This document shows positions 21,387 through 47,669 of a stretch of 64,000 bases of DNA, piece by piece; positions within the stretch are counted from its first letter, which is position 1; the number at the start of each line of letters is the position of its first letter. The DNA is from Salinivirgaceae bacterium (GTDB lineage: Bacteria; Bacteroidota; Bacteroidia; Bacteroidales; SZUA-534): NCBI GenBank assembly GCA_016342715.1, contig JAEINW010000003.1, positions 604 to 64,603 on the forward strand, written 5' to 3'. The notes beneath the pieces were generated by a model. That model made no database searches. It saw only the letters and a program-made list of their open reading frames with translations, and was not told the origin of the DNA. The translations under genes were made by a program, and so were the position numbers.

Positions 21387-21589
21387 TGCGAAATGATTGT
21401 TGTGTATGAAATAAGACACATTTAACACATTTTACCCTATATTAAAAATTAAATATAACTCATAATGTTATGTAAAAAAAATACTGTTAATTTTGGGCTC
21501 AAATTAATTTTGCATATGAAATAGCCATAAGCAATTAATTAAAATACATAAGTTACCGAAATACAAAGTATTAATCAAAGTTTATACAC

Positions 21590-23244: not shown

Positions 23245-26200
23245 TTACACCTTAAAACCAATAATTAAAATATCGTCCATCTGATGTGTTTTACCGTCAG
23301 GATGATTCATCCAATCTTTAATAGTAGTATTTAATATTCTATGCTGCTCGGCAAAAGTTTTAGTGTGAATATCAACCAGTAGCTCACGCATATTTTTACG
23401 CATAAATTTTCGTTCTCTAGGACCACCAATTTGATCTTGAAAACCATCGGAGTACATATAAATACAATCGTCCTTTAGTAACTGAATTTTTGTGGCTGTG
23501 AAATCACTCATTTTAATATGATATCCAACAGGCATGCGGTCGGCTTTAAGTTCAGAGGCTTCGCTATTTCTAATAATAATTGCAGAGTTATAGGCTCCTG
23601 CAAAATTCATTTCTAAAGTATCAATATTAATAACGCAAATTGCCATGTCCATGCCATCTTTTGAGCTTCCGGCATAATCGCCTTGTTTTAATGACGAAAT
23701 TACATTTTGCCGCATCTGCCCAAGAATAATATCGGGAGCATCTATTTTTTGTTCTTTAACTATTTTATTTAAAAAACTCACGCCCAGCATACTCATAAAT
23801 GCTCCAGGCACACCGTGTCCTGTGCAATCGGCGGCTGTTACTATTAGTTGCCTATCAAGCCGCTCAATCCAATAGTAGTCGCCACTAACAATATGGCAGG
23901 GTTTGAAAAGTATAAACGCATCATCGGTATTTTGTTGTAAATTTTCAATACCGGGTAAAATTGCACGTTGAATACGTTCGGCATAATTTATACTGCCGGT
24001 TATTTCTTCTTTCTGACTTTGAATTTCATCCTTTTGTGCAACCACCTCTGCTGTACGTTCTTTCACTACTTTTTCAAGATGTGCTTTTTCTTTTAGTAAT
24101 TTTTTCTCGCGCCAGCGAATAAAAAGGTATAAAGCAACAATAAGAAACAGTATAATTATGGTTAAAAACCACAGTGTTTTCCAAAACGGAGCTTGAATAA
24201 CAAAATTATAAACTACGGGTTGCGACCAATTAATTCCATCGGCACTGGCTATTACTGAAAAGCTATATTTACTATTGGTTAAGCCGGGATAGGTTACTGA
24301 TGTGTTTGCTGTTGCAGGCGACCATTCTTTTTCATGCGGTGCAAGTTTGTATTTAAATATTACCTTTTCAGGATTTTTAAAATGAATACCCACATAGTCG
24401 AAAGTTACATGGTTTTGATGGTGGGGCAGCGAAAGTTTATTTGGATACGCATTCCATGCATCTGTATGAAAACCTTGAGCCTCCCAGTTTACATTTTCAA
24501 AAGATAGTCTTATGCCAGTTAAATGAACAGTGGGTGTTTTTGTAAGGGTATCTTCCATTTCGGGACGATAGCTGGTTAAGCCATTAACCGTTCCAAACCA
24601 TATATGTTTTTGTTCATCGCTACAAATGGCATTGTAGTTGGTTTCGCTCCAAATAAAACCATTGGATTTATCATACTGTCTCACATTTTTTACTTTTTTT
24701 ACATCGGTATCAAAAGTAAGTTTATTAAACCCATGGTTAGTGCCAACCATAAGGGTTGAGTCGTTATAAAACAGTAAGGAATTTATTGCCTTTGAATTTA
24801 ATATAGCCTGCGTAAATGGAGTAATTGTATCGGTAGTTGGGTTGTAATTATAAATTCCATTATTTGTTCCTATCCAAATCACATTATTTTTATCGGCCGC
24901 TAAGGTATGAATGCTTAAATCAAACAAGCCTTCCTGCTCGTCAAAGTCGCGATATTCACTGGTTTTTGCTCGAAAACGCGCCAATCCGCCAAGAGTTCCC
25001 ATCCAAATATTGTTAGCCTTGTCAGATATTACCGTTTGCACCTCGGGATTAATTAATCCTTGTTCCTCTGAGATGGTGTGTATTTGTTGTCCAGCAATTT
25101 CATTAAAACCTAAATCGGAGCCTACATAAATAGAACCATTGGGTGCATTGTACACACAGTTAATGTTGTTGTCGAGTAAGCCTTTGGCAGTAGTAAGGTA
25201 GTTGAATTGGTCATTAATAATTAAAAGACCTTGCCCTCTGGTGCCTGCCAATATACGTCCTTGATTATCAATATCGATAGTGGTTATCTCACTTGTTCTA
25301 TAAGCATTTGTTGCAGTAAAAGTGTGAACTTTTATTTGGTCGTTTTTTATCGATGCTAGGCCTAAACCTTGTTGGTTTGTGCCCAGCCAAAGCTGTCCCT
25401 TATCATCTGGTTTTATTGCCATAACGGAGGACCCCGGTAAGCCTTCGGCAACTGAGTAGTGAACCAATTGAAAGCCCTGAAATTTACTTAAGCCCTGACC
25501 TATCGATCCCAACCAAAGGTTTTTGTTGTTATCGCGGTAGATGCAAAATATTTGGCTGCCCAACAAACCATTGCTTGTTGAGATATTTTGTATGGTGTTG
25601 TTATTCGATCGGAATACACCATTTTTTTCCGAAGCAAACCAAACGCTGCCATCGGTATCGCAATGAATATCCCAAATTCTTAAATTTGCATCGGCGCTAA
25701 GCAAAGAACAAGGCGTAAATTCAGTGCTGTTTTTTTTCCATTTATAAGCTCCGGTATCCAGTGTTCCAAACCAGATATTTCCTTTTTTATCTTCAGCAAT
25801 ACTGGTTATGTATTTACTTGGTAAACGAATGGAGTCGTTAATATTTTTAATTTGAGGTTTGTTTTGGCTTAATGTAACTGTGCTTAATCCACCAAACATT
25901 GCAATCCATGTTTTACCATTGGAATCGTGCATTAAATCGAGCACAAAATCTCCAGCTAGGCCTTGTTGAGAACTGATATTTTGAATTTGGATGGAGTCGT
26001 TAAACGTGCTAATAATATTAACACCAGCATCGTTAGTGGCTGCCCACATTCGTCCTTTGTTATCGGGTAAAAGTTTGGTGATGACACTGCCCAGCAAGCC
26101 ATTTTCAGTAGTAATTGTTTTCCAGTTTGTACCATTGAATATACCAATACCTTTATCGGTGCCAAACCATATATTTCCCTGGCTGTCTTCAACAATGCTG

Positions 26201-26451
26201 CGTACAATATTTCCTGGCAATCCATTGCTGCGGTCTATAATTGAAAAATTAGTGCCATCGAAGCGTGCCGCTCCACTTTCGGTACCTACCCAAAGATATC
26301 CGCGAGCATCTTCATTTATACAAAACACGGTTGACTGGGGCAATCCTTGCTCCATATTGTAGTTTGTGAAATTGTACAATTGCCCGAATGTACAAGTACA
26401 GGGGGCAATTATTGCTAAAATAAAAGTAATCAGGATATAATATTTTTGCAT
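23245..26451 (-). CDS. Periplasmic beta-propeller/Y_Y_Y sensor with one TM helix and a cytoplasmic PP2C (SpoIIE) phosphatase
   Basis: Repeated Reg_prop-like blades (..G.IWFGT..G), a TM helix (LWFLTIIILFLIVALYLFI), a coiled coil, then SGDYYW..AADCTGHGVPGAFMSMLG. Confidence 0.85.
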   Translation of the reverse strand: MQKYYILITFILAIIAPCTCTFGQLYNFTNYNMEQGLPQSTVFCINEDARGYLWVGTESGAARFDGTNFSIIDRSNGLPGNIVRSIVEDSQGNIWFGTDKGIGIFNGTNWKTITTENGLLGSVITKLLPDNKGRMWAATNDAGVNIISTFNDSIQIQNISSQQGLAGDFVLDLMHDSNGKTWIAMFGGLSTVTLSQNKPQIKNINDSIRLPSKYITSIAEDKKGNIWFGTLDTGAYKWKKNSTEFTPCSLLSADANLRIWDIHCDTDGSVWFASEKNGVFRSNNNTIQNISTSNGLLGSQIFCIYRDNNKNLWLGSIGQGLSKFQGFQLVHYSVAEGLPGSSVMAIKPDDKGQLWLGTNQQGLGLASIKNDQIKVHTFTATNAYRTSEITTIDIDNQGRILAGTRGQGLLIINDQFNYLTTAKGLLDNNINCVYNAPNGSIYVGSDLGFNEIAGQQIHTISEEQGLINPEVQTVISDKANNIWMGTLGGLARFRAKTSEYRDFDEQEGLFDLSIHTLAADKNNVIWIGTNNGIYNYNPTTDTITPFTQAILNSKAINSLLFYNDSTLMVGTNHGFNKLTFDTDVKKVKNVRQYDKSNGFIWSETNYNAICSDEQKHIWFGTVNGLTSYRPEMEDTLTKTPTVHLTGIRLSFENVNWEAQGFHTDAWNAYPNKLSLPHHQNHVTFDYVGIHFKNPEKVIFKYKLAPHEKEWSPATANTSVTYPGLTNSKYSFSVIASADGINWSQPVVYNFVIQAPFWKTLWFLTIIILFLIVALYLFIRWREKKLLKEKAHLEKVVKERTAEVVAQKDEIQSQKEEITGSINYAERIQRAILPGIENLQQNTDDAFILFKPCHIVSGDYYWIERLDRQLIVTAADCTGHGVPGAFMSMLGVSFLNKIVKEQKIDAPDIILGQMRQNVISSLKQGDYAGSSKDGMDMAICVINIDTLEMNFAGAYNSAIIIRNSEASELKADRMPVGYHIKMSDFTATKIQLLKDDCIYMYSDGFQDQIGGPRERKFMRKNMRELLVDIHTKTFAEQHRILNTTIKDWMNHPDGKTHQMDDILIIGFKV

Positions 26452-26454
26452 TTT

Positions 26455-28302
26455 TTATTGATTCTGCTTTTTAATAAAAATAAACTGCCCACCCTCGTCG
26501 CCAGTATTTACAATAGGACTAAAGCCTGGAGTTTGGTTAGAGTTATTAATTACGGCTACTTTAAGGTCGTTGTATAGTTGGCTGGCATCAAAAAATTGAT
26601 TCTCGTTATTTGTCAATGATTTAAGCAAATAATAAGTAAAAACAGAATGTCCGTCTTTTCCACCATCCATAACTGGTTCAATGCCGCCTGAGGTAAGGGC
26701 TGTGCGCGATTGTTTTGAGTAAATTTGATTGTAATACTTAAATGAATTTTCGTAAGGTATTGTTAAGGTTTTTCCACGGAAAATATCCCCACTAAAACAG
26801 GCATCGGCAATCAAAAAAGTATGTTTCGATTTTATGCCGTTTAAAAACGATTGGATATCGGTGTTGGCAATAAGTCCTGAAATTGAACTGCTTGTGGCAT
26901 CCGAAGGAACCCAGAAGCCCCGCTGTAAGGCTTCGTTATAATCGCCATGGCCTGAATAAAAAATCAGTAGGTTATCGTTCTCTTTAATGTTAGCCATTAG
27001 CCATTCGTATTCTTTTAGAATGTTTGCTCGTGTTGCTTGCTCGTTATATAAAGTTCGAACCGATTGAAATTCATAACGACTTGTTAATTGTGCTTCAACC
27101 GCTTTAGCATCGTTCACTGCATTTTTTAGCGGTTTCCAATCACCTGAATAATTATTGATGCCAATAATTAAAGCAAAATATCGGCCAATGCTTACTTCCT
27201 GCATGGCTTTTGAAGCACCCAGACCTTTTAAGGGGTCGTTACTGCTACGATATAAAGCTAATTGCTCGTTTTGTTGAGGCGAGTTGTTTTGTATGGCTTG
27301 ATTTAAAGCTAATTCGAAATGTTGAACTTCGCCTTTTTCAAGTTGTGCACCTTCTACTTTTAACTCAATGGGTATTTTATTTAAATCGATGTTTTTATTT
27401 ATGTAAAAAACAAGTTCTATTTCTTTTGAACTTTGTGCTTTTAGTTGCAAATCGCTTTTGTTTTCGAGCATCATAAGCGATGATGGTAGGTTATATCTGA
27501 GCTTTAAGTTATTTGCATCGATGCTCGAATTGTTGTTAATGGTAAATTTCATAGTAACAGTTTCACCAGCCAAAACTTTTCCAGATGGACTTGAGAAGCT
27601 TTCGTTTGAAACCATGAGTTTTGGGAGCTTATCTGCATTGTTATCAGATAGTTGGCATACATGCAAATAATCGATTTGCACCGACGATTTTGCTGCTACC
27701 TGAAAACCAATACCATTGCCAAAGAAGGGTTCAAAAGGCATTTTGTGAACCAATTCACGGTTTATAAAAAAGTAATAACTATTGTCAACCTTGCGAACGG
27801 TTAAGGTATTGTAGGTGTAATTGTTGATGAGTTTTGATGACTTTACTGGAACAAAATCGGTAAATTCGCCTGTAAATTTATCGATGGTAAATTGCCCTTG
27901 TCCGTTAATAAAGAAATCAAACTGTTTTCCTTGGTCAATTGATTTCCCCCATTGCAATCCATAAAATTTATTTTGAATACCTTTATCAAGACGAATTTTA
28001 AGGTCAATTTCAAAGTCTTTACTTTGATCGATAATAACCTCTTTAAAGTCTTCTTTTGGGACATCTTCATACGATTGAAAAAAAAGAGTACACTCCTGAA
28101 TATTTTCGAACCATATATCTTCCTTGATTCCCAAATACCAATTGTTGTTATTGTTATTAAAATCTTCAATAAACAAAGCTGTTTTTTGATTGGGAGCAAA
28201 ACCTGAATAATTTTCAGCTACAGTATGAATCTGTGCATTAAGGGCTATTGAAAAAGAAAAGATTGAAAACTGCACTAATAATAAAATAGATTTGAGAGAC
28301 AT
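26455..28302 (-). CDS. Secreted caspase-family (peptidase C14) protein with N-terminal jelly-roll-like and Ig-like domains
   Basis: Signal peptide; His/Cys dyad contexts LLIFYSGHGD and FLIADACFSG. The stop lies 3 nt upstream of the PP2C-sensor start codon. Confidence 0.8.
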   Translation of the reverse strand: MSLKSILLLVQFSIFSFSIALNAQIHTVAENYSGFAPNQKTALFIEDFNNNNNNWYLGIKEDIWFENIQECTLFFQSYEDVPKEDFKEVIIDQSKDFEIDLKIRLDKGIQNKFYGLQWGKSIDQGKQFDFFINGQGQFTIDKFTGEFTDFVPVKSSKLINNYTYNTLTVRKVDNSYYFFINRELVHKMPFEPFFGNGIGFQVAAKSSVQIDYLHVCQLSDNNADKLPKLMVSNESFSSPSGKVLAGETVTMKFTINNNSSIDANNLKLRYNLPSSLMMLENKSDLQLKAQSSKEIELVFYINKNIDLNKIPIELKVEGAQLEKGEVQHFELALNQAIQNNSPQQNEQLALYRSSNDPLKGLGASKAMQEVSIGRYFALIIGINNYSGDWKPLKNAVNDAKAVEAQLTSRYEFQSVRTLYNEQATRANILKEYEWLMANIKENDNLLIFYSGHGDYNEALQRGFWVPSDATSSSISGLIANTDIQSFLNGIKSKHTFLIADACFSGDIFRGKTLTIPYENSFKYYNQIYSKQSRTALTSGGIEPVMDGGKDGHSVFTYYLLKSLTNNENQFFDASQLYNDLKVAVINNSNQTPGFSPIVNTGDEGGQFIFIKKQNQ

Positions 28303-28386
28303 ATCTAATAATTTTTGATGTGTGTTTTTTTATAAAAAATATTGGGTTTTTGAGAAGTCAATTACGTCATGTTTTTTGAATAACTA

Positions 28387-28424
28387 TTTATCAAATCGTA
28401 CAATTTGGAGCTCAAATTGATAAA
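28387..28424 (-). promoter_or_regulatory. 38-bp conserved motif, copy 1 (TTTATCAATTT-GAGCTCC-AAATTGTACGATTTGATAAA on the minus strand)
   Basis: Same 11+7+20 architecture as 32197-32234 and 32450-32487. It points toward the caspase gene, ending 85 nt from its start codon. Confidence 0.6.
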
Positions 28425-28620
28425 ATAATAGCGGTTTGCATATATTAAAATGAGGTAGGTATCGTGAAAGTTATTTTTTCAACAAGACTAAACGCAATAT
28501 AATCCCCTCGTTTACTTGATATTATATAACTTTTTTAAAAGTTAAAAAAAAATTAACGGAGTTTATTACATTCAGCAACTTTGCTTATATTTAAGACAAG
28601 ATAAAAAACCACAAAAAAAC

Positions 28621-29754
28621 ATGGATCTGAGTTTACATTTTCTTTCAAATACTGTCTTATTTGTGGTGTGTTTGAGTATGGGGACCATGTTTTTAGCATT
28701 CCCTGTTCCTCAAAAATCAGGGTTACGAAACTATAAAATATCATTACGAGTATTAGCTAGTGCCTATTCCATTTTAGGATTACTATCAATGATTATCATT
28801 GTTTTTAAAATACCTGACAATGCCCGCGAACATTTTACATTTTTAGGTATCGGTATTTCATCTTTTCAAGTATTACTTTTTTCAAGTGCGCTTATAACCC
28901 TGATTAATCCAAAATTTGTAACCTTTCGGTATCTAATCGCACAAATTACTCCCTTTTTATTTTTTATAACTTTTTTTATTCTTTCTGCAAAATTTTACGG
29001 CAATCCAGTAATCACGCATTTAAATGAAATAAGTCTCTATTTAAAGAATCCGACCCTGTGGATTAGGCTATTATTTTATGGCTATTATATATTTCAACTT
29101 TTCTTTTATACCTGGTTATATTTTAATGAGGAAAAAAAATATAAATCACGAGCTTTAAATTACTTTTCCGATGAAGTTTGGCTAAAATTAACATGGGTAC
29201 GATTTGCTTTTATTGCGGCTTTAGCCATAGGAACCATTGCAATGATATCATGCTTCTTTCCTCAAAAATACGATTGGATTTTTAACTTACTATATACTCT
29301 GTTTTATTTAGGTTTTGCCCTTGAATACATAAAATATAATAAAATATTTAGATTAGTTGAACCCATAATAGTTACAGAAAAAGTTGTACCTGCAGATGCA
29401 AATAAAAAACCAAGATCCAAAATGGAATGGCTTGGTTTGAAGCAACAAATTATTAACAATAACTATTATCTGGAGACAGGTGTTAACATTGAAGACATTG
29501 CACAACGCCTAAGAATTGGTCGCACTACCCTTTCCACCTTTATTAATCGCGAAGAGGGTGTTAATTTTAACACTTGGATAAATACCATGCGCATTGAAAA
29601 GGCAAAAGAGCTACTAATTAAAAACCCTGATGAACCCCTATCACTTATTTCAGAAAAGATTGGATATAGCGAACAGTCCAATTTCAGTCGTCAATTCAGA
29701 CAAATTACCGGATATGCTCCCACCTTATGGCGGCAGCAGCAAGGTTGTTTGTAA
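28621..29754 (+). CDS. AraC-family transcriptional regulator with polytopic membrane N-terminal domain
   Basis: About 250 aa of TM helices, then an AraC HTH (IEDIAQRLRIGRTTLSTFI..IGYSEQSNFSRQFRQITGYAP). Confidence 0.8.
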   Translation: MDLSLHFLSNTVLFVVCLSMGTMFLAFPVPQKSGLRNYKISLRVLASAYSILGLLSMIIIVFKIPDNAREHFTFLGIGISSFQVLLFSSALITLINPKFVTFRYLIAQITPFLFFITFFILSAKFYGNPVITHLNEISLYLKNPTLWIRLLFYGYYIFQLFFYTWLYFNEEKKYKSRALNYFSDEVWLKLTWVRFAFIAALAIGTIAMISCFFPQKYDWIFNLLYTLFYLGFALEYIKYNKIFRLVEPIIVTEKVVPADANKKPRSKMEWLGLKQQIINNNYYLETGVNIEDIAQRLRIGRTTLSTFINREEGVNFNTWINTMRIEKAKELLIKNPDEPLSLISEKIGYSEQSNFSRQFRQITGYAPTLWRQQQGCL

Positions 29755-29779
29755 AAAATATTGCCTTACAAATTACTGA

Positions 29780-30151
29780 TTGCCATCGCATTACAGTCGT
29801 TTTTATTATTTTGCGTTTTCAACAACACAATTTGGAATACCTTTATGCAAATTTAACCAAACGAATAAAGCTTGCAGACACTACCTTTGTTATGCCCTTT
29901 GTGATGAAACTCCACAAATAGGCAATTTGCGAGAAACCTTCTTTTTAAACCAATTACGGGCAAACGAAAAGGTACATTATGCCGAACCTGCTGATTTTAT
30001 CATTAATCAAATATACACCATTGAAGTAGGGGGAAAAACCAAAGACACTTCTCAAATTCGCAACATTGAAAATGCTTATCTGGCCATTGATGGCATTGAA
30101 ATAGGAACCCAACAACGAATACCTCTGTGGTTGTTTGGGTTTTTGTATTAA
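29780..30151 (+). pseudogene. C-terminal remnant of an AAA_14/DUF4143-type ATPase
   Basis: IGNLRETFFLNQL..YTIEVGGKTKDTSQI..IPLWLFGFLY is the typical C-terminus of this family. The upstream part is scrambled across two frames (29727..29921 and 29780..). Confidence 0.55.
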
Positions 30152-30343
30152 TGAAGCTTAAAACGGTTTTTGGAAAATATTGGAATTTGATTCCAACAAT
30201 ATCGGATATTTTTGGTAACCAATTTCGATACAAACATTAGCTTATTTCATTGTATATATCATTTCAAGTTTGACATGACAATAAAGTTAAGTCAAGTTTG
30301 ATATTTCAGATTAAGAAAGGTTCTGCTTTAGGTGATGAACACT

Positions 30344-30643
30344 TTATATAAGTCTGAAAAGCTGCTCGATATCGGCAATGTCACTTAATCGCATTTTACC
30401 ATCGGCTGCAATCATTTTCAAAGTGTGACAATTCGTCACGGTTTGGTTTCCTTCTTGCTTTAACCTTTGTTTCAATTCCCGCCAATACCATTGAGAGTCT
30501 ATGGTTTCGGTTAGTACTCTAACCACATCGACAATCGAAAAATACCATTTTTCCTGTTCCTCATCCCAATGGGTGCGAATTTGTTTTTCGTTGAATAGCT
30601 TTATTGCCGTTTCCTTTGCTTTATACTTTTCTAATTTATTCAA
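30344..30643 (-). CDS. Bro-N-like DNA-binding domain fragment (99 aa)
   Basis: IRTHWDEEQEKWYFSIVDVVRVLTE..LKMIAADGKMRLSDIADIEQLFRLI resembles the N-terminal half of longer Bro-N/antirepressor-like proteins. The family call is from memory. Confidence 0.45.
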   Translation of the reverse strand: MNKLEKYKAKETAIKLFNEKQIRTHWDEEQEKWYFSIVDVVRVLTETIDSQWYWRELKQRLKQEGNQTVTNCHTLKMIAADGKMRLSDIADIEQLFRLI

Positions 30644-30788
30644 ATAAAACCCATTTTTGGCTTTGTTTTGCTAAACTACCAATTTTTATTATGCACTAGT
30701 TTGTTTAAAATTAACATTTTACGTAGGTGTCTACCATTGCAAATTGAGGAGTGTAATCTAAACATCTAATAAACTTCTCTAATTTATT

Positions 30789-30838
30789 TATCTTTTCAAT
30801 AAGATATATTTATCCATATATATCTTATTGAAAAGATA
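30789..30838. promoter_or_regulatory. Perfect 21-bp inverted repeat (TATCTTTTCAATAAGATATAT - 8 nt - ATATATCTTATTGAAAAGATA)
   Basis: Arms at 30789-30809 and 30818-30838, read directly. Ends 28 nt upstream of the ATG at 30866. Confidence 0.7.
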
Positions 30839-30865
30839 TATTGCTATATTTGTAAAAAATTAATC

Positions 30866-32122
30866 ATGGATAAAGTTGTCTTAAAGAAGATAATAATTGA
30901 AAACAGGGAGTTTATTCAAAATCTCGAATTGACTACCAGACATCAAAACATTGATATTGCAGCAAACTATATATTTTGTGGCATCCGACGGTGTGGAAAA
31001 AGTTTTATGCAATTCCAGCGTATGAAGCAAATTATGAAGCAGTCCAGTGAGTTGGAATTCATTTATATCAATTTTGAAGATGAACGCTTCATAGAATTCA
31101 ACTACCTTGATTTTGACTTGATATTGGAATGTGCTTTTGAACTTTATAAAAAGAAGACGGCACTTTTTTTTGATGAAATACAGAACATTGAAAATTGGGA
31201 AAAGTTTGCACGACGCCTGGCCGATACTGGTTATTTGGTTTATATATCCGGAAGCAATGCAAAAATGTTAAGTAAAGAAATGGCGACTACCTTGGGTGGA
31301 AGATATCTGATTGAAGAGGTTTATCCCCTATCATTTATCGAATACTTAAGTTTTAAATCTATTAAACCAGAAATAAATTTTGAATATTCGAATCAGCGAT
31401 TCGAAATTAAAAAACAATTTGATACGTATTTTTACCAAGGAGGTTTTCCTGAATTACTGAAATACCAAAACTCAAGAGAGTATCTTAGTAGCGTTTATAT
31501 GAAGGTTTTTTATGGCGATTTAATGGCACGCAATCATCTTCAAAATGAACAAATATTAAAATTGTTGATTAAAAAATTGGCAGAAAGTGTGAATAATGAA
31601 ACATCGATAAACCGAATTAAAAATCTGATAATATCTACCGGATTAAAAGTTGGCAACAATACCATTACCGATTATTTAATCCATTTGTTTGATTCTTACC
31701 TCATTTTTCCACTCAATAATTACGCTTCGAATTTCACCGAACGCGAAACAAAAAAGAAATACTACTTTGTTGATCAGGGAATTCTGAACCTTTTTATTAC
31801 TGACCAAAACACTAAATTATTGGAGAATATTGTGTTTATACACCTTTACATCCAATTTAAAGATAAACTGTTCTACTACAAGCGTAAGATGGAGATTGAT
31901 TTTTATATTCCAGAACAAAATCAACTCATTCAAGTTTGCTACTCACTTTCAAACATTGAGACCAAACAACGCGAAATAGCTGCCTTGCAATGGGCAATGA
32001 ATGAATTGAATATAACTAAGGCTACCATAATTACTTACGATGAAGAGGAAATAATTAAGCTATCGGAAGCAATGTTAACGATTGAACTTGTACCTATATG
32101 GAAATGGCTATTAACCACTTAA
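30866..32122 (+). CDS. AAA_14 / DUF4143 ATPase (COG1373-like)
   Basis: P-loop-like GIRRCGKS, Walker B-like LFFDEIQ, and a C-terminal DUF4143-like region. Confidence 0.75.
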   Translation: MDKVVLKKIIIENREFIQNLELTTRHQNIDIAANYIFCGIRRCGKSFMQFQRMKQIMKQSSELEFIYINFEDERFIEFNYLDFDLILECAFELYKKKTALFFDEIQNIENWEKFARRLADTGYLVYISGSNAKMLSKEMATTLGGRYLIEEVYPLSFIEYLSFKSIKPEINFEYSNQRFEIKKQFDTYFYQGGFPELLKYQNSREYLSSVYMKVFYGDLMARNHLQNEQILKLLIKKLAESVNNETSINRIKNLIISTGLKVGNNTITDYLIHLFDSYLIFPLNNYASNFTERETKKKYYFVDQGILNLFITDQNTKLLENIVFIHLYIQFKDKLFYYKRKMEIDFYIPEQNQLIQVCYSLSNIETKQREIAALQWAMNELNITKATIITYDEEEIIKLSEAMLTIELVPIWKWLLTT

Positions 32123-32196
32123 AGCACTATCAAAGAACAATGACCCAAATTTACCCCCAAGATTAGGATAACAGAAATCATACTTTTACCTCAATT

Positions 32197-32234
32197 TTTA
32201 TTAATGATTATGTTAATTTGTACGATTTGATAAA
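32197..32234 (+). promoter_or_regulatory. 38-bp conserved motif, copy 3 (TTTATTAATGA-TTATGTT-AATTTGTACGATTTGATAAA)
   Basis: Direct reading. Lies 323 nt upstream of the adhesin start. Confidence 0.6.
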
Positions 32235-32449
32235 TGTCTTACACATTAAAGTGAAATATTTATACAAAAGTTGGTGAAGGAATAAGGTACTTATGTTTTT
32301 CATGGAACTAGTCTTTCAAAAAGATAACATGGTTCTGAATTTAGTCATCGGATGAATGAATTTGTAAAATATGGTATAAATTAATGCCAATACATTCAGC
32401 TTGTTACTAATTCATCCAATGACTTTAACTAAATTTTCTTCCCCGCACT

Positions 32450-32487
32450 TTTATCAATCTACACGGTAAATTGTACGAATTGATAAA
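32450..32487 (+). promoter_or_regulatory. 38-bp conserved motif, copy 2 (TTTATCAATCT-ACACGGT-AAATTGTACGAATTGATAAA)
   Basis: Direct reading. Ends 70 nt upstream of the adhesin ATG at 32557. Confidence 0.6.
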
Positions 32488-32556
32488 TGGTTCAGAATAC
32501 TACTAATTATCTTTGGGGCTTTTATCTGTGATTTTGAAAATTATCATTCTACCACT

Positions 32557-35500
32557 ATGAATTACTTATATACTAAAACTTGCTTGGCGAGTATTCTAAT
32601 GGGTATGCTTTGCATATTTCAGTTTTCTAGTAAAGCACAAAACAATTGCTTGGATTTTGATGGCGTTGATGATTACGTATCAACCACAGCCATTAACCCT
32701 GCAAGTTTTACTTATGAGGCATGGATTAACCCCGATAACACAACAAATGACCAAGCTATAATTTCCTCTTTAAATGAGATTGGTTTAAAAGGATCCGAAT
32801 TACACATTAGCTCGAATGCAGTCTCGCTTACCATGAGAAATAATACCGAATGGCATAATATTATTACATCTGCTGGTGTTATAAATACCGGAAATTGGTT
32901 TCATTTGGCTACTACTTATGATGGAACTACAGCTATTATTTACATAAACGGGGAGCAAGCAGTATCGGAAACGGAAGCTACCTACATTGCTGGCAGTACC
33001 CCTCTCACTATTGGAAGAAGATCGAGTGGATTACTAAACTTTGATGGTAAAATTGATGATATCTGCGTTTGGAACAGGGCACTTACTCAAACAGAAGTTC
33101 AAGCTAGAATGAATACAAGTATAGCTGGTATCGAAAGTGGACTCCTTTTAAATTATAATTTGAATCAAGGCATTGCTGATGGCAATAATACTGGTATTAC
33201 CTCAGCGACCGATGCAACAACAAATGGAAACGACGGGACGCTTTCAGGTTTTGCTTTAACAGGCACAACTTCAAACTGGACTAAAGGAGCGCCAAAACCT
33301 GAGCCTACAAATCATGCTACAATATTTACTGCAAGTTTAAATGGAAGTAATATTGAATTAGCTTGGAGTGACGAAGCCTCTGCTGAAGGATATTTAATAC
33401 TTGCCTCAACTACAAACTCTTTTACCGACCCTATCGATGGTGTGGAGTCCAGCGTAGATAAAGATTTAAGCGATGGCTCAGTTGTTATTAAAGTGCCCCA
33501 GGGAACGGAAACCTACTCTGGTTTTACAAACGCTGCAACTGGTAATACTTATTATTTCCGTATTTACCCTTACAATAATTCTGGCTTAGATATTAACTAC
33601 AAAACAAACGGAACAGTTCCTGAAAGTTCAGTATTTTTACCAAAAACAGAACCAAGCAATCATGCAACGGCTTTTACTGCCAACGTAAATAGCGGAAATA
33701 TTGAACTTAGCTGGATAGATGAACCTACTGCTGATGCATACTTAATTTTGGCATCAACCACAAATACTTTTACTGTGCCCACCGATGGGAATATTCCTGT
33801 TGCTGATAATGATTTAGCAGATGGCTCAGGAACTATTTTCGCATTGCAAGGAGACGAAATTTACTCAACTTGGCTAAATACTTCCTTTGGTACAACATAC
33901 TATTTTCAGATATATGCTTATACCATAACGGGATCTTACCCAAATTACAATACAAATCCAACCATTCCAACAGTAGACATTATAATACCATATCAACTTT
34001 TCTCTTATCATTCAACATCAATATCTGATTATAACCAAGGAGCAATAGCCTGGGGCGATTTTAATAACGATGGTGCTTTAGATATAATTGCAACGGGAAA
34101 AACAGGTGGAAATGTAACGAGTTTGTACAAAAACAATGAAGACAAAACATTTAGTTGGCAAACTTCCTATTCAGGTGTTCAGGGCTCTATTGTTTGGTGT
34201 GATTATGATAACGACAATGATCTTGATTTTGTTATGGCAGGTAGCGGGGTTACCAGCATATTTAGAAATGAGAGTGGTTCGTTTGTAAAACAATCCGACA
34301 TTTCATTTATGGGCGTTACATCGGGTTCTGTCGATTGGGGTGATTTTGATAATGATGGATTTATGGATTTAATTGTTACCGGCCTCGATAACATCAGCGT
34401 TGAAATCACCAAAATATACCACAATAACGGCAACAATACGTTTCAGGAATTAAATATTGATAATATTATTGGAATACAACATGGTGTAGTTTCTTGTGGA
34501 GACTATAATAATGATAAATTCTGCGATTTTATAATTGTTGGCGGTTATTTTGATAATTACGATATGGGTAAATTATACAAAAGCAATGGTGATGGTACTT
34601 TTACAGAACAGTCAGATATTGAAATACCACCATTAAATATGGCTAGCGCAGATTGGGGCGATTATGACAATGACGGTGATTTGGATCTGCTACTTTCCGG
34701 TATCCATAAAACATCAAACAATGAAGTAAATACAGTGTACCAAAATAACGGTAATAATACGTTCACTGAACAAACTGGTATTACATTAGACGATCCTACC
34801 GACTATCGCCATTCAATAGCTTGGGCTGATTACGACAACGATGGTTATCTGGATATTTTCCAATTGGTTGGCGATTACACTCAAATTTATCATAATGATA
34901 AAGATGGTTCATTTACCAAGAAATCGCTAACAGAATATTCAATAGCTCCTGGCAATATGGCCTTTGGCGATTTTGATAAAGACGGAGATCTTGACTTATT
35001 GGTTACCGACAAATCTAGCAACGATTACGCAACCACACTTTACAATAACAATTGTGCTACAATAAATACAGCACCCACGGTACCCAATGGGCTTACTATT
35101 ACCCAAACAAAAGATAACGCAATATTAAGCTGGAATAAAAGTACCGACAATACTACGCCATCTGAAGGTTTAACCTACAATATTCGCATTGGAACAACTG
35201 CGGGTGGATGCGATTTATTGTCGCCGCAAGCTTTAACTGACGGAACGCTTCTTATTCCAGCAAATGGCAACAACAGTACTGATACCTCCTATGGTTTTTC
35301 ATGCGATCCAGAAACGTATTATTGGGCAGTACAAACCATTGACAAATCCTATGCAGCTAGCTCTTTTTCCAGTGAACAAACATTTATTCGCACCTCATTC
35401 CCGGCAACCAATTTAAGCGCACAAATTAATTCAAGCAGTTCGCTAATGTTGCGATGGGAAACCGGAAGTTTATCACGACGTGCTGTTTTCTGTAAACAGG

Positions 35501-38500
35501 CATATTCTGGATCAGCAACACCTGTCGACGGCGATTACTACCTTGCCGACCCATATTATGGAAAAGGCGACGAAATTGGTGCAACCGGTTGGTATTGCGT
35601 TTACAATGGCAAAGCGGATAGCACTATGGTTTATGGTCTGGATGCCGATTATGGTTATATTTTCCATGTGTTGGAATATACCAGCCAGTCAGAAACAACC
35701 GATTATGTACTGGATGTAGCAGATGGCAATCCAGCGGTTTTTGGTGTAACTGAATTTTTATCGCAACCCAGTTCCATATCAGGTATAACAACCAACTTGT
35801 CAGGTGGCACTTCCAGTTGGGTTGATTACAACAATAACGGATATCTTGATTTGTTTTTAACCGGGAGCTCATCATCCAGTTATTTATACGCAAATAATGG
35901 TGATGGTTCTTTTACCGAAAATTCAATTTTTAACTCAAATTACCATATTACTGAAATCGCTTGGGGCGATTATAATAACGATGGATTTCAAGATGCCATT
36001 GCTTCGTGTGATTCAAATGTTTATACCAGTGTATATAAAATTGACAGCACTTATGACTCCAGTGCTAATAGCTGGATTTATGATTCTACGTATACAGGAT
36101 ATACCACTCAAACAAATTATTTTTCAGTAATATATAAGAACAATAATGGCGAAGAATTTATAAAACAAAGTATTACAAACATTCCCCCCGCTTATGACGG
36201 AAGCATAAAATGGGGCGATTATAATAATGATGGGCTTTTAGATTTGATTTTAACGGGCAGAAGTACTTCTATTGTTAATACAAGTTCTATTTCATACACT
36301 AAACTATTCAAAAATAATGGAGAAAATAGTTTTAGCGAAGTATCAGAAGAATTTCCCGGAGGGGGAAATGGTGATGTGGAATGGGGTGACATTGATAATG
36401 ATGGAGATTTAGATATCGTTTTAGCAGGAAATAATGTTTCAAAAATTTACATTAACAATAATGGAACATTTGATGAACAAACAACATTGCAATTAACGCA
36501 AATAGATAGCCAAGCCACTATTAGACTTGCCGATTTTAATAACGACGGTTTAATTGATATTATATTATTTGGATACACTGATAGCAGACACATATCAGAA
36601 ATTTATCGCAATACCGGAGATGGGCAGTTTAATAAGGAGTCTACATGTGCAATTACTACCATAACATCAGGTTCTGTTAATATAGGCGATTATAATAATG
36701 ATGGCCTTATAGATGTTTTGGCAATAGGATATGCAACTTGGTATGGCTGGCTATCTGGCGAAGCCCCATTTGCCAAATTATACCTTAACATAAGTAATTC
36801 CAATGACAATTTAATCGAATTTGAAGAAGTTAAACAAAACGGGTTAATTGGTTCTAGTAATGGAGCCTCCAATTATGGTGATTATGACAATGATGGAGAT
36901 TTAGATGTAATTATAACCGGTCAGAATGATTTAATTGCCTATACCAAATTTTACACCAATAATACCATCATGAATGCCGGTAGTTTTGCCCCTAATAAAA
37001 CCCCTACCGTTCCACAAAACCTCACCAAAGAACCCCTTCGGGGAGGTGTACTCCTTAGTTGGAATGCTATTACTTCCGACGAAACCCCTTCTTCAACCAT
37101 GAGTTACAATATTCGGGTAGGTACCTCAAAAGACAGCATGAACCTGTATGCTCCAAATTTTGTAGATTCGGTTAATTTTAAAAACCGCACGGTTACACAA
37201 ATGGGTAATGCCGGGCTAAATACCTTTTATAAAATTTATAACCTGCCCGATTTAGCTGATGATAAATACTATTATTGGCAGGTACAAGCTGTGGATGGTG
37301 GATTTTTGGGAGGCGAATGGTCACGGGTAGATTCATTCCAAATTCAGTCGGCACAAGCCTATTTTTCCTATAATATTGCGTGTAAAAGCGACACCACCTT
37401 TTTCAAAGATGAATCGGTTGCCTACGATGGTATTACAGCCTGGAAATGGAATTTTGGCGACAATTCCGGATTAAACTACGAACAAAACCCAAGCCATGTA
37501 TTTCAATCTGCTGGGGAACATAGTGTGCAATTGGTTGTAACCAATAGTCAAGGTAAAACCGATACCATTACCCAAATTGTTTATGTGAAACCTACGCCTT
37601 CTGTTTCATTTACCGCCACCGATGGTTGCGGAGCATTCTCAACTGAATTAGACAATTTAACAAGCACTACCGGTTTAATTAATAGCTGGTTCTGGAATTT
37701 TGGCGATGGGCAAACATCAATTTATGGCGACCCATTAAGTCATGTGTATGGTGCAACAGGTAATTTTACTATTACGCTTTCTGCCTCCGACACTAATGGA
37801 TGTTCCTCAACAATCAGTCACGATATTGTGGTTACCACCAAACCCAATACCTCTCTCACCCTTGAATATGGAACTTTGATCAATGGAAGTCCCAGTTTCT
37901 GCTTGGGCGACAGTGTAATGTATTCTGTGGCTGCAAATGCTAATTACAGCTACCAATGGCAGCGCGATAATTCAAATATTGCCAATACTACCAATCAGTT
38001 AAAAGTAAAAACGGTTACAGGCAATTACAAGGTAATTATAAGCAATAATTTAGCGACCACTTGTGCTGATACCTCCGAGGTAAAAACCATTACCGTGAAG
38101 CAAGTTCCAGCACCTCCAGTTCTGGAAGCTGAATCAGCTGTTTCATTCTGTCAAGGGGACAGTGTTAAAATAACTTTAGGAAGTTATTCCGGAGTTACAT
38201 TTAACTGGTTTAAAAATGGCGGTTCGCTCGATGGCTCACAAAACTATTTTATGGCAAAAGAATCAGGGAATTATACCAGCAGGGTAACATTATCAAATAA
38301 TTGCTATTCAAGTTCAGAGATTCCTGTTGTGGTTAATGTTAAGCCCAACCCACCAACTCCATCACTAAACTATGGCGATTCAACTATTTGCAGTGGAATT
38401 ACACTTAATTATTCAACCGTTAATAACCCAGCGTTGACTTATCAATGGTACAGTAATAACGACCCTATTCCGGGCGCAACCAACAACCTATTTCCTATTG

Positions 38501-40803
38501 CCCAAAGTGGCAATTATAAATTGGAAGCTACATTAAATAACTGTTCGGTTACTACCAGTCCGGTAGCCGTAACGGTTAATCCAGTGCCGACTACGCCTGT
38601 AATTGATGCCCCGGCATCAACCAATTTTTGCGAAGGAAGCAGCGTTACCCTACAAACAAATTATATTGATGGACTTACATACCAATGGCTTAATAATAAT
38701 GCCAGCATTGGTGAAAACAGTAACCAATTATTCGCCACAATTGGAGGAAATTACTCTGTAGAAGTTATCAATAATTATTTATGTAAGGCAGCCTCAAACA
38801 CTATTAGCCTAACCCGCACTTCTGCTCCAACGGCACCTTCACTAAACTATGGCGATTCAACTATTTGCAGTGGAATTACACTTAATTATTCAACCGTTAA
38901 TAACCCAGCGTTGACTTATCAATGGTACAGTAATAACGACCCTATTCCGGGCGCAACCAACAACCTATTTCCTATTGCCCAAAGTGGTAATTATAAATTG
39001 GAAGCTACGTTAAATAATTGTTCGGTTACTACCAGTCCGGTAGTAGTTACCGTTAATCTATCGCCCGTGCAACCTGAAATTATAATTTCGGGGGCTGACA
39101 TAGTTTGCAGTGGAGAATCATTGGTGTTAAGTACCGAATATTTTAACGATGAATCTTACCAATGGTATAGGGGGTCAACTGCACTGAGCGGCCAAACTAG
39201 TGATTCGTTGTTTGTTAGCCAACTTGGTGAATATGAATATAAAGTGCTGTCAAGATTAGGAAATTGTGTCCTCACATCAACCCCAGTAACGGCAAAAGTT
39301 AATGAATTACCATCAGTTATCAATTTAACTCTTTCGGGCGATTCTATTTTTTGTTCTGGTAGTAGTCTTACTCTTACAGCAAATGGTAATCCAGCCAATT
39401 ACTATTATCAGTGGTTCCGGGGTTATGGTATCTCTATAGATGGAGCTACAAGCAATGAATTAATTGTAAATGAAAGCTATCAATATAAAGTCAGGGTGCA
39501 GAATCCGCAGACCTACTGTGAGCGTGAATCGCGTTCTATTCAAGTAACAGTAAAAAACTCACCCAATACACCAGAAATTACTGTTGATAATAATAAAACC
39601 GATTTTTGTCAGGGAGAAAGTACCCTACTTCGAACATCTGCAACTAATGTAAATTGGATTTGGGGAAAAGTTGGTGACAGTAATTCATTGTCGGATAATA
39701 ATAATCTTACGGTAACTAATTCTGGCGATTATTTTGTGAAAGTTATCAATAGTGAAAATTGTGAGGCCACCTCTTTAACACAAACGATAACTGTTTTTGA
39801 TTCGCCTGTAAAAAACTATCTCTATTACGAAGGGGAAACCCAGTTTTGCGAGGGAGGGAGTGTATTGATAAAAACAAATTACAATACCAATATTAATACC
39901 GATTATATATTGCAATGGAAAACTCTGGAAGGTAGTATCGATGGGGCTAATCTGAAAAATTATTTGGCAAGCCAATCGGGTTATTATTGGCTTGAGGTTA
40001 TTAATGCGAATCAATGTTCAGTAGTTACCGATACCTTACAAGTTCTGGTTGATGCCATGCCACCCACACCTTTTATAATGGAACAAAATAATACCACTGA
40101 ATTTTGTCCAGGTACACAACTTGAGCTACTTGTTGATAATGCTTCATCCAATTATGAATATCAATGGCAGCGGTTTAGCAATAATATACCGAATGCTACT
40201 CAATCGGTTTATGGAGGAAAATTAACAGGTGGCGATTATTCGGTTGAGCTTACTTATGGAACTTGTATGCTTACTTCAAATATTTTAACATTAACCGAAA
40301 AGTTGGCACCAGAAAAACCTTTAATTTCAGGTCAAGGACCGGTTGAGTGGATGCTATTTTGTAGTGAAACAAATGCTACGGCTTACCGCTGGTATTTTGA
40401 TAATGTATTGATAGTTGGAGCTAAATACTCCATGTATTTTGCCAATAGAAATTTGGGTAACTATTATGTTGAAATTAATATGGGCGAAGAGTGCTGGACT
40501 AGGAGCGATATTCTAAATATTCCATCGGGCGATTTAATAGATGGTATCCCAACTCTGAATTCTAAGGCTATAAGTATTTATCCAAATCCATCACAAGGGG
40601 AGTTTACGGTGCATTTGGGAACCCAATTGCCAGGAAATCTGAAGGTGCAACTTACCGATGTATTAGGAAAAAACATGGCTAATTATGAATATTCTTTTGT
40701 TCGTGAATTCTCCGTCTCCTTGCATGAATTTCCTCAGGGGATATATTTCTGTAAAATGGAATACAAAGGAAATATAGTTATGAAAAAAATTATTAAAAAT
40801 TAA
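32557..40803 (+). CDS. 2748-aa T9SS-secreted adhesin-like protein (LamG, FN3, two FG-GAP/VCBS blocks, PKD, ~11 Cys-containing Ig-like repeats, T9SS CTD)
   Basis: Signal peptide; LamG-like FDGKIDDICVWNRALTQTEVQ; many WGD(F/Y)(N/D)NDG.LD repeats; PKD WKWNFGDNSG and WFWNFGDGQT; C-terminal ISIYPNPSQGEFTV..GIYFCKM. Confidence 0.85.
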   Translation: MNYLYTKTCLASILMGMLCIFQFSSKAQNNCLDFDGVDDYVSTTAINPASFTYEAWINPDNTTNDQAIISSLNEIGLKGSELHISSNAVSLTMRNNTEWHNIITSAGVINTGNWFHLATTYDGTTAIIYINGEQAVSETEATYIAGSTPLTIGRRSSGLLNFDGKIDDICVWNRALTQTEVQARMNTSIAGIESGLLLNYNLNQGIADGNNTGITSATDATTNGNDGTLSGFALTGTTSNWTKGAPKPEPTNHATIFTASLNGSNIELAWSDEASAEGYLILASTTNSFTDPIDGVESSVDKDLSDGSVVIKVPQGTETYSGFTNAATGNTYYFRIYPYNNSGLDINYKTNGTVPESSVFLPKTEPSNHATAFTANVNSGNIELSWIDEPTADAYLILASTTNTFTVPTDGNIPVADNDLADGSGTIFALQGDEIYSTWLNTSFGTTYYFQIYAYTITGSYPNYNTNPTIPTVDIIIPYQLFSYHSTSISDYNQGAIAWGDFNNDGALDIIATGKTGGNVTSLYKNNEDKTFSWQTSYSGVQGSIVWCDYDNDNDLDFVMAGSGVTSIFRNESGSFVKQSDISFMGVTSGSVDWGDFDNDGFMDLIVTGLDNISVEITKIYHNNGNNTFQELNIDNIIGIQHGVVSCGDYNNDKFCDFIIVGGYFDNYDMGKLYKSNGDGTFTEQSDIEIPPLNMASADWGDYDNDGDLDLLLSGIHKTSNNEVNTVYQNNGNNTFTEQTGITLDDPTDYRHSIAWADYDNDGYLDIFQLVGDYTQIYHNDKDGSFTKKSLTEYSIAPGNMAFGDFDKDGDLDLLVTDKSSNDYATTLYNNNCATINTAPTVPNGLTITQTKDNAILSWNKSTDNTTPSEGLTYNIRIGTTAGGCDLLSPQALTDGTLLIPANGNNSTDTSYGFSCDPETYYWAVQTIDKSYAASSFSSEQTFIRTSFPATNLSAQINSSSSLMLRWETGSLSRRAVFCKQAYSGSATPVDGDYYLADPYYGKGDEIGATGWYCVYNGKADSTMVYGLDADYGYIFHVLEYTSQSETTDYVLDVADGNPAVFGVTEFLSQPSSISGITTNLSGGTSSWVDYNNNGYLDLFLTGSSSSSYLYANNGDGSFTENSIFNSNYHITEIAWGDYNNDGFQDAIASCDSNVYTSVYKIDSTYDSSANSWIYDSTYTGYTTQTNYFSVIYKNNNGEEFIKQSITNIPPAYDGSIKWGDYNNDGLLDLILTGRSTSIVNTSSISYTKLFKNNGENSFSEVSEEFPGGGNGDVEWGDIDNDGDLDIVLAGNNVSKIYINNNGTFDEQTTLQLTQIDSQATIRLADFNNDGLIDIILFGYTDSRHISEIYRNTGDGQFNKESTCAITTITSGSVNIGDYNNDGLIDVLAIGYATWYGWLSGEAPFAKLYLNISNSNDNLIEFEEVKQNGLIGSSNGASNYGDYDNDGDLDVIITGQNDLIAYTKFYTNNTIMNAGSFAPNKTPTVPQNLTKEPLRGGVLLSWNAITSDETPSSTMSYNIRVGTSKDSMNLYAPNFVDSVNFKNRTVTQMGNAGLNTFYKIYNLPDLADDKYYYWQVQAVDGGFLGGEWSRVDSFQIQSAQAYFSYNIACKSDTTFFKDESVAYDGITAWKWNFGDNSGLNYEQNPSHVFQSAGEHSVQLVVTNSQGKTDTITQIVYVKPTPSVSFTATDGCGAFSTELDNLTSTTGLINSWFWNFGDGQTSIYGDPLSHVYGATGNFTITLSASDTNGCSSTISHDIVVTTKPNTSLTLEYGTLINGSPSFCLGDSVMYSVAANANYSYQWQRDNSNIANTTNQLKVKTVTGNYKVIISNNLATTCADTSEVKTITVKQVPAPPVLEAESAVSFCQGDSVKITLGSYSGVTFNWFKNGGSLDGSQNYFMAKESGNYTSRVTLSNNCYSSSEIPVVVNVKPNPPTPSLNYGDSTICSGITLNYSTVNNPALTYQWYSNNDPIPGATNNLFPIAQSGNYKLEATLNNCSVTTSPVAVTVNPVPTTPVIDAPASTNFCEGSSVTLQTNYIDGLTYQWLNNNASIGENSNQLFATIGGNYSVEVINNYLCKAASNTISLTRTSAPTAPSLNYGDSTICSGITLNYSTVNNPALTYQWYSNNDPIPGATNNLFPIAQSGNYKLEATLNNCSVTTSPVVVTVNLSPVQPEIIISGADIVCSGESLVLSTEYFNDESYQWYRGSTALSGQTSDSLFVSQLGEYEYKVLSRLGNCVLTSTPVTAKVNELPSVINLTLSGDSIFCSGSSLTLTANGNPANYYYQWFRGYGISIDGATSNELIVNESYQYKVRVQNPQTYCERESRSIQVTVKNSPNTPEITVDNNKTDFCQGESTLLRTSATNVNWIWGKVGDSNSLSDNNNLTVTNSGDYFVKVINSENCEATSLTQTITVFDSPVKNYLYYEGETQFCEGGSVLIKTNYNTNINTDYILQWKTLEGSIDGANLKNYLASQSGYYWLEVINANQCSVVTDTLQVLVDAMPPTPFIMEQNNTTEFCPGTQLELLVDNASSNYEYQWQRFSNNIPNATQSVYGGKLTGGDYSVELTYGTCMLTSNILTLTEKLAPEKPLISGQGPVEWMLFCSETNATAYRWYFDNVLIVGAKYSMYFANRNLGNYYVEINMGEECWTRSDILNIPSGDLIDGIPTLNSKAISIYPNPSQGEFTVHLGTQLPGNLKVQLTDVLGKNMANYEYSFVREFSVSLHEFPQGIYFCKMEYKGNIVMKKIIKN

Positions 40804-40861
40804 GTTTTTTAAAAAAGTATGGAATAATAATTCAGCCTAAACTCATAAAAAAAAGAAAAGA

Positions 40862-42775: not shown

Positions 42776-42790
42776 GCAAATTGTAAAGAA

Positions 42791-43411: not shown

Positions 43412-43415
43412 TAGT

Positions 43416-47648: not shown

Positions 47649-47669
47649 TGTTGCTTCGAAAATATTGTC

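Follow-up and report, generated by a model that had tools for sequence, protein, structure and literature searches.

A conserved inverted-repeat motif before a caspase-PP2C operon and a giant adhesin operon is a probable operator of a membrane-bound AraC-type regulator

Here we analyzed a 64,000-nucleotide stretch of DNA from a Salinivirgaceae bacterium (contig JAEINW010000003.1, positions 604 to 64,603; hereafter the window), in which a 38-bp motif, TTTATYAAT-N9-AAWTTGTACGAWTTGATAAA, precedes two operons. One operon encodes an exported caspase and a PP2C phosphatase sensor, the other a giant adhesin of a type IX secretion system (T9SS), and between them lies the gene for an AraC-type regulator with seven predicted transmembrane helices (7TM). 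The motif is conserved across lineages, keeps a fixed spacing to a -7 box, and co-occurs with the AraC gene. It is very likely a protein-binding cis-regulatory operator, and comparison of the sequences suggests that its binder is probably the adjacent 7TM-AraC protein, acting as an activator.

Three copies of the motif are present in the window and there is no fourth, with 0.17 expected by chance. Copy 1 (28387..28424, minus strand; TTTATCAAT-TTGAGCTCC-AAATTGTACGATTTGATAAA) stands before the caspase-PP2C operon, with 84 nt between it and the caspase ATG at 28302, and copy 2 (32450..32487, plus strand; TTTATCAAT-CTACACGGT-AAATTGTACGAATTGATAAA) stands before the giant adhesin operon, separated from the adhesin ATG at 32557 by 69 nt. 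Copy 3 (32197..32234, plus strand) is an extra, window-specific copy whose start lies 253 nt upstream of the start of copy 2. A search for AAWTTGTACGAWTTGATAAA with up to 3 mismatches returned only 28387-28406 (-), 32215-32234 (+), and 32468-32487 (+), and 0 of 100 shuffles reached 3. A position-weight matrix built from 24 related sites, which was also applied to the related loci, scored copy 2 at 47 bits, copy 1 at 45, and copy 3 at 36. Its scan of the 64 kb gave no weaker copies, the next independent position scoring below 14 bits; two further entries were reverse-strand and 1-nt-shifted readings of the same copies, and no score of 10 bits or more occurred in 5 shuffled windows. Alignment of the flanks (60-90 nt) showed the shared unit to be discrete and about 40 nt long (TTTTATYAAT-N9-AAWTTGTACGAWTTGATAAAT), with flanks that could not be aligned. 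The initial annotation of this DNA had placed the three copies at these coordinates and strands, which were confirmed by sequence reading and the mismatch search; its distances to the caspase and adhesin starts and its 253-nt offset between copies 3 and 2 were borne out, and its calls of caspase, phosphatase, AraC, and adhesin genes held up in the open reading frame (ORF) listing and in Pfam.

In the alignment of the 24 sites, the motif forms a 16-6-16 inverted repeat with imperfections, TTTATCAAWTCGTACA-N6-TGTACGAWTTGATAAA. Conservation is strong in the promoter-proximal half, at 24.5 bits, and weaker in the distal half, at 14.7 bits. The information in the proximal half is concentrated in two blocks, TTGTACG and TTGATAA, whose starts are 9 bp apart, and the distal half carries the outer block in mirror form as TTTATCAA. 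The adhesin sites of the Tenuifilaceae are near-perfect 16-6-16 palindromes, for example TTTGTCGATTCGTGCA-TGCATT-TGTGCAAATCGACAAA in L046 (related loci and lineages are given by L numbers). The palindrome is real, as 80.7% of the alignment cells pair compared with 34-48% when the partner is slid, which agrees with the earlier description of the outer halves as inverted repeats.

Promoters of the Bacteroidota consist of a -33 TTTG element, a spacer of about 19 nt, and a -7 TAnnTTTG box, with transcription starting a few bases past the G. Anchoring all sites on the motif and scoring TAnnTTTG along them, we found TAnnTTT[G/A] exactly 20 nt past the motif in 9/9 adhesin promoters and 21 nt past it in 4/4 sites of distant homologues, with 5-6 of 6 positions matching at the common offset in every one of these sites. 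No other motif-to-box offset was enriched. In the window, the -7 box of the adhesin promoter (32508..32515, plus strand; TATCTTTG) is a perfect TAnnTTTG that begins 20 nt after copy 2. The same TATCTTTG is found in L040 and L042, and L045 and L046 have TAATTTTG. Caspase promoters carry variant boxes at 20-22 nt (TAATTTG, shifted by one base; TTACTTTG; TAATTGAC), and the putative -7 box of the window's caspase operon (28357..28364, minus strand; TAATTGAC) is such a TAnnTTTG variant, 22 nt after copy 1. A good -33 TTTG element is missing: its expected position coincides with the 3' edge of the motif (..ATAAA|tgg), and TTG is present there in a minority of sites. A poor -33 element is consistent with dependence on an activator. 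Transcription of the adhesin would start near 32522, which implies that the motif occupies about -72 to -35, and that of the caspase is predicted to start near 28350 on the minus strand. The motif had been described as a misfit to the TTTG/TAnnTTTG consensus. This is correct for the motif itself, but the description missed the -7 box that lies 20-22 nt past nearly every copy; on the sequence, the motif does not appear to be an alternative promoter, and a -7 box of the ordinary Bacteroidota kind follows it at a constant 20-22 nt. In the intergenic regions between orthologous caspase and AraC genes, only the motif and the core-promoter block are conserved, and the AraC-proximal part is variable. 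Autoregulation of AraC through copy 1, which the initial annotation had implied, is thus unsupported, the conserved part being the caspase-proximal one.

We detected 152 homologues of the AraC protein and, for eleven of them, inspected the surrounding DNA, about 20 kb in each related genome. No two AraC proteins among the twelve compared lineages are more than 71% identical. Eight lineages (the window, L040/41, L042, L043, L044, L045, L046, and L049), with AraC proteins 51-67% identical to that of the window, share a recurrent layout in which the PP2C and caspase genes are read in one direction, and AraC and a giant FG-GAP/T9SS adhesin in the other. In all eight, the motif stands before both operons with the 20-mer always gene-proximal. 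The distance from the motif to the caspase start is 48-87 nt (L003, L040, L042, L043, L044, L045, L046, L049, and the window), and that to the adhesin ATG is 54-72 nt (L040, L042, L043, L044, L045, L046, L049, and the window). The placement holds where the surroundings differ. Both adhesin paralogues that bear a copy keep it in L045; a Flg_new gene is located between caspase and AraC in L042, and the arrangement is kept; and in L043 the adhesin is 7.6 kb away from AraC, with six unrelated genes between, and the motif is still present at both operons. In L040, L044, and L046, AraC is followed directly by the motif and the adhesin. The caspase-PP2C gene pair itself is kept in every orthologous locus.

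The motif adjoins the AraC gene in all 12 lineages where this could be checked. These include four distant homologues, L047, L048 (Paludibacter propionicigenes WB4), L050, and L051, whose AraC proteins are 39-46% identical to the window's and which are without a caspase or an FG-GAP adhesin. Each has one motif copy of 33-43 bits immediately 3' of the AraC gene, facing other genes, among them those for Collar-domain proteins, a patatin, and GEVED/T9SS cargo. The converse case is L055 (2-11406)/L056, from a caspase clade at 50% identity, where the caspase-PP2C operon is head-to-head with an FG-GAP/PKD/CHU_C giant protein and AraC is absent. The motif is absent from this AraC-less locus as well, where the best weight-matrix score is 8.6 bits and falls inside a coding region. 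The linkage between caspase/PP2C and adhesin therefore appears to be older than, and independent of, the layer formed by AraC and the motif. Since the motif is kept next to AraC in the distant loci and is missing from L055/L056, its occurrence follows that of the AraC gene and not that of the target genes, and among the available arguments this sequence-level co-occurrence speaks most strongly for AraC as the cognate factor. The small regulon that the initial annotation proposed, joining the caspase-PP2C and adhesin operons through the membrane AraC protein, is supported by the motif at both operons in eight lineages, and further by its presence beside AraC in the four distant homologues with other targets and its absence where AraC is missing.

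The gene of the proposed trans factor (28621..29754, plus strand) encodes a protein of 377 residues that matches Pfam HTH_18/HTH_AraC and is predicted to contain seven transmembrane helices, a linker, and a C-terminal AraC domain. The AlphaFold model (39 homologues; pLDDT 83) has seven long helices over residues 5-237, a disordered linker, and the AraC domain, and the hydropathy profile agrees with a seven-helix membrane part. In Foldseek, the C-terminal domain resembles the DNA-binding domains of AraC, YesN, AdpA, and MarA (TM 0.7-0.8), and a MarA-DNA structure is among its matches. The membrane part gave only weak GPCR/rhodopsin-like matches (E >0.02, rmsd 7-10 Å), and the N-terminal 240 residues that form the seven-helix bundle match no Pfam family. 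AraC is the sole regulator consistently present across these loci. Transmembrane transcription regulators are a known class, reported to be enriched in Bacteroidota (PMC10269533). Searches of the full-text literature gave no description of the regulator family, motif, or regulon, nor of an operator for such a protein.

Outside the orthologous promoters the motif is rare. We scanned for the exact 20-mer in 596 Gb of genomes (one per species, 185,579 species), a metagenome collection, and viral contigs; the window's own genome is absent from both the genome and the metagenome collections. The scan gave 27 genome loci and 12 metagenome loci. About 15 matches in Flavobacterium are a single conserved coding sequence (..LDEIVRFDKS..), and most of the others are inside ORFs. 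Genuine sites are found only at L002, L003, L029, L031, L032, and L035, all of them before caspase orthologues. L003 is a Bacteroidales metagenome-assembled genome, and L002/L031/L032/L035 belong to Marinilabiliales UBA12394 and relatives. At these orthologous loci, the caspase is 76% identical to that of the window and the neighbouring AraC 64%. Three matches in viral contigs were judged, from contig overlap, to be chance coding matches, since two of them are on contigs that had already given coding matches. The weight matrix found no extra sites in 250 kb of related loci. A listing of genes downstream of the 20-mer had been suggested with the initial annotation; run on species-representative genomes, it returned real sites only before caspase orthologues, and the genome, metagenome, and viral scans together gave orthologous promoters and chance coding matches, not a generic repeat.

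These features can be joined into a single mechanism. The blocks TTGTACG and TTGATAA, about one helical turn apart, would be the footprint of one AraC-type domain, whose two helix-turn-helix units would enter successive major grooves. The two 16-bp half-sites, about 22 bp apart centre to centre, would then present one face of the DNA to a two-fold symmetric dimer; the MarA-DNA structure and the AraC literature suggest by analogy that two domains can fit on one face in this way. The dimer would be held by the membrane domain, and such a symmetric dimer would favor an inverted repeat. At about -72 to -35, the motif would substitute for the missing -33 TTTG element. A signal received at the membrane domain would cause the regulator to recruit primary-sigma RNA polymerase to both promoters, activating rather than repressing them, and the exported caspase, the PP2C envelope sensor, and the T9SS adhesin would be co-induced.

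As a kind, the element reads as an AraC-family operator at an activator-dependent promoter, probably an uncharacterised member of a familiar type. The araI site of AraC at pBAD spans -72 to -35, and the sites of XylS, RhaS, and MelR abut or overlap the -35 element. Like these AraC/XylS sites (araI at pBAD, XylS at Pm, RhaS at rhaBAD, MelR at melAB), the motif is about 38 bp long, is placed at -72 to -35, and is accompanied by a poor upstream hexamer; its two half-sites measure 16-17 bp and each contain a pair of blocks spaced by about one helical turn, and the regulator gene is adjacent and divergent. Unlike them, it serves a Bacteroidota -7 TAnnTTTG promoter rather than a sigma-70 -10/-35 promoter, and its half-sites are inverted with only a 6-bp gap. 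RhaS, RhaR, AdpA, and ToxT are able to use inverted half-sites, and the arrangement here is like that of RhaS and RhaR. The proximal 20-mer also resembles the marbox of MarA/SoxS/Rob, an element read by an AraC domain with two helix-turn-helix units, in being asymmetric, about 20 bp long, and orientation-dependent with respect to the promoter. However, marboxes are bound by monomers, have no partner half-site, and are unrelated in sequence.

Differences from known regulators are larger on the protein side. In contrast to the AraC/XylS regulators, the window protein, whose site is predicted, has a 7-helix membrane domain in place of a cytoplasmic ligand or dimerisation domain. A DNA-binding domain tethered to the inner membrane is shared with ToxR, TcpP, and CadC, and with the Bacteroides hybrid two-component systems that end in an AraC domain, the latter showing that AraC domains can act from the membrane in Bacteroidota. 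The ToxR-type proteins are bitopic and winged-helix, whereas the present protein has its AraC domain attached directly to a polytopic 7TM bundle; the hybrid two-component systems, unlike this protein, have periplasmic sensors together with kinase and receiver modules. Less usual for an AraC-family system are thus the polytopic 7TM regulator and the regulon of an exported caspase, a PP2C envelope sensor, and a giant T9SS adhesin. The analysis yields a candidate operator, a promoter layout, and a target set for an uncharacterised family of polytopic-membrane AraC proteins, which has more than 150 members in Tenuifilaceae, Salinivirgaceae, other Marinilabiliales/Bacteroidales, and Paludibacter. 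It ties together exported caspase-like proteases, PP2C envelope sensors, and giant T9SS adhesins, three gene classes about whose regulation in Bacteroidota, to our knowledge, almost nothing is known. It also presents what would be a clean case of a Bacteroidota promoter that depends on an activator, in which the -7 box is good and an operator replaces the -33 element; we know of very few promoters of this layout that have been dissected. Given knowledge of the signal, the 38-mer with the core promoter could become a portable inducible module.

Several points weigh against the proposed AraC operator. The distal half-site is poorly conserved in some lineages, such as at the caspase sites of L044 and L043, and these weak half-sites could instead reflect a monomer site with an auxiliary element rather than a symmetric dimer. 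The putative adhesin start is placed from the -7 box by itself, and the absence of the motif where AraC is absent is seen in one lineage, L055/L056. In the outer eight pairs (columns 5-12 paired with 36-43 of alignment A2, 24 sites), 169 cells are Watson-Crick, 19 are G.T on the sense strand, 0 are A.C, and 4 are others. A wobble pattern consisting of G.T only is not predicted by a pure DNA-site model, although a purine requirement at those positions would explain why only transitions are seen.

The G.T bias, being compatible with wobble pairing on the sense strand, would fit a hairpin of RNA (or single-stranded DNA), acting as a 5'-leader or read-through element in stability, processing, or termination. 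Folding is more favourable than in shuffles for copies 1 and 2 (z = -2.9 and -2.6), the folding energies of the Tenuifilaceae copies are -15 to -17 kcal/mol, and T-to-C changes opposite G occur in L046 (adhesin site) and L044 (caspase site). Yet covariation over the 16-pair structure in the 24 sites is 0.196 compared with 0.187 for shuffled columns, with 107 of 500 shuffles as high; copy 3 is unfolded (z = +0.7); and the best-conserved block, TTGTACG, would be in the loop or in the poorly paired inner stem. The window has no Rfam match, and no U-tract is present past the stem. Since the predicted -7 box comes after the motif at a fixed distance, the motif probably precedes the start and would not be transcribed from these promoters; at the adhesin sites, read-through from the AraC gene is possible. 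Within a genome, the two sites share the same distal-arm variants (TTTGTC..), as would be expected if both co-evolved with one trans-acting protein. We consider a hairpin very unlikely. A bolder combination would have the 7TM receptor wired straight to DNA, its symmetric dimer holding both promoters at the inner membrane and turning an envelope or ligand signal in one step into co-expression of the giant T9SS adhesin and a protease/phosphatase module that processes or monitors it, with the palindrome doubling as an RNA hairpin in read-through transcripts (the sense-strand G.U bias) and so forming a dual DNA/RNA element; we regard this as a speculative idea with a correspondingly slim chance of being right.

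If the motif is an operator, it could also be bound by a protein encoded elsewhere, such as a regulator downstream of the PP2C sensor, with AraC a co-regulated or coincidental neighbour. The roughly 20 kb inspected per genome and a link between AraC and the DNA drawn from sequence comparison leave some room for this, and a Crp-family regulator is encoded 1.2 kb past the adhesin operon. On the other hand, the motif stays by AraC in the four distant homologues amid entirely different neighbours, no second regulator is common to the loci, the Crp gene is missing from the related ones, and a 16-bp bipartite half-site suits an AraC domain better than a 5-4-5 site of the Crp/FNR type. Another binder thus appears unlikely. 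An FNR/Crp box (TTGAT-N4-ATCAA) was considered separately and rejected on half-site order and spacing, as well as on the lack of conservation of the nearby Crp gene in related loci. The fixed spacing between motif and box could alternatively mark a promoter read by an alternative sigma factor, perhaps one released by PP2C partner switching, with TTGATAAA as an extended -35 element, and the target operon does encode a regulated SpoIIE/PP2C phosphatase whose domain resembles those of SiaA-type partner-switch phosphatases. But the box after the motif is the signature -7 element of the primary Bacteroidota sigma, a dyad-symmetric stretch of 38 bp far exceeds a -35 element, and genes for sigma, anti-sigma, and STAS proteins are absent from the window and not consistently present in the related loci; we give this reading very little weight. 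The chance that the motif is a mobile or recombination repeat, of the REP/MITE palindrome type or an invertase site, is next to negligible. Such a repeat would be palindromic, as the motif is, and copy 1 has the opposite orientation to copies 2 and 3, copy 3 borders an inserted block of defence candidates, and a weak IS200/Y1-transposase-like ORF occurs at 47665-48264. Nevertheless, the 64 kb contain three copies, all in promoters, and the 250 kb of related loci none in addition; the viral contigs gave only the matches taken as chance coding; the placement and direction of the motif with respect to start codons and the -7 box are kept across lineages whose AraC proteins share 51-71% identity; and the window has no recombinase gene, while housekeeping genes lie between the copies in L043.

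An operator bound by the 7TM-AraC protein remains the preferred reading. In copy 3, the proximal 20-mer is preserved, at 29 bits, the distal half has a weak score of 6.7 bits, and what follows at +20 is a poor box (AATATTTA, 4/6 matches). No counterpart of copy 3 was found in any related locus examined, and the 215-nt stretch that separates it from copy 2 has no match in these loci. A recent tandem duplication was rejected as its origin, since the surroundings of copies 2 and 3 cannot be aligned and the 215-nt spacer is matchless. Copy 3 may be an auxiliary upstream site, its 253-bp distance from copy 2 being about 24 helical turns and recalling araO2, or it may be the promoter relic of a lost adhesin paralogue.

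The first target operon (23245..28302, minus strand) consists of a signal-peptide Peptidase_C14 caspase (26455-28302) and a Reg_prop/Y_Y_Y sensor fused to a SpoIIE/PP2C phosphatase (23245-26451), both on the minus strand and identified by Pfam. A propeller/Y_Y_Y periplasmic sensor is typical of the Bacteroides hybrid two-component systems. Here it is combined with a SpoIIE domain that resembles the biofilm regulator SiaA (NCBIfam 166 bits, below cutoff); there is no STAS-type partner gene for the PP2C protein in the window. The second target operon (32557..44213, plus strand) comprises the adhesin and three ORFs on the same strand. The adhesin (32557-40803, plus strand; 2748 aa) contains Laminin_G/FG-GAP/PKD/CHU_C domains and a T9SS C-terminal sorting domain (Por_Secre_tail), and the three ORFs that follow (40862-44213, plus strand; 637, 206, and 265 aa) have no match in Pfam, NCBIfam, or PADLOC. 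In L046, a 637-aa gene likewise follows the adhesin. A second giant T9SS-sorted protein (16569-21428, minus strand; 1619 aa), with CotH kinase, lamin-tail, beta-helix, PKD, and CHU_C domains, is encoded beyond the PP2C gene, and the window scan found no motif upstream of it.

Between AraC and the adhesin promoter, an insert at 29780..32122 carries candidate phage-defence genes and lies outside the regulon. It contains a full-length AAA_14/DUF4143 ATPase (PADLOC PDC-S01, 314 bits), an ORF of 99 aa whose match to PDC-S13/PDC-S04 is confined to their N-terminal third, and the C-terminal part of another DUF4143-type ATPase. Because the adhesin promoter follows straight after AraC in L040, L044, and L046, 29780-32122 of the window is an insertion. 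A DUF4143 ATPase is found at the equivalent spot in L049 and is absent from L040, L044, and L046; the spot between AraC and the adhesin may be a recurrent insertion site. A reading of the whole locus as a defence island was rejected, as the PADLOC candidates are confined to the inserted ATPase block and the match of the caspase is to a generic catalytic domain only.

Beyond the adhesin operon, the Crp/cNMP-binding regulator (45422-46120, plus strand) and the transposase-like ORF (plus strand; E = 1e-4, below the Pfam cutoff) are both absent from the related loci. Among the distant homologues, Collar, Peripla_BP_6, and GEVED/T9SS-sorted proteins recur downstream of AraC (L047 11411-18378, L048 11522-20199, L050 11560-18542), and the AraC family may control T9SS cargo loci more generally. 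In L047, short ORFs (about 64 aa) are found repeatedly near these genes, and L050 has one just upstream of AraC.

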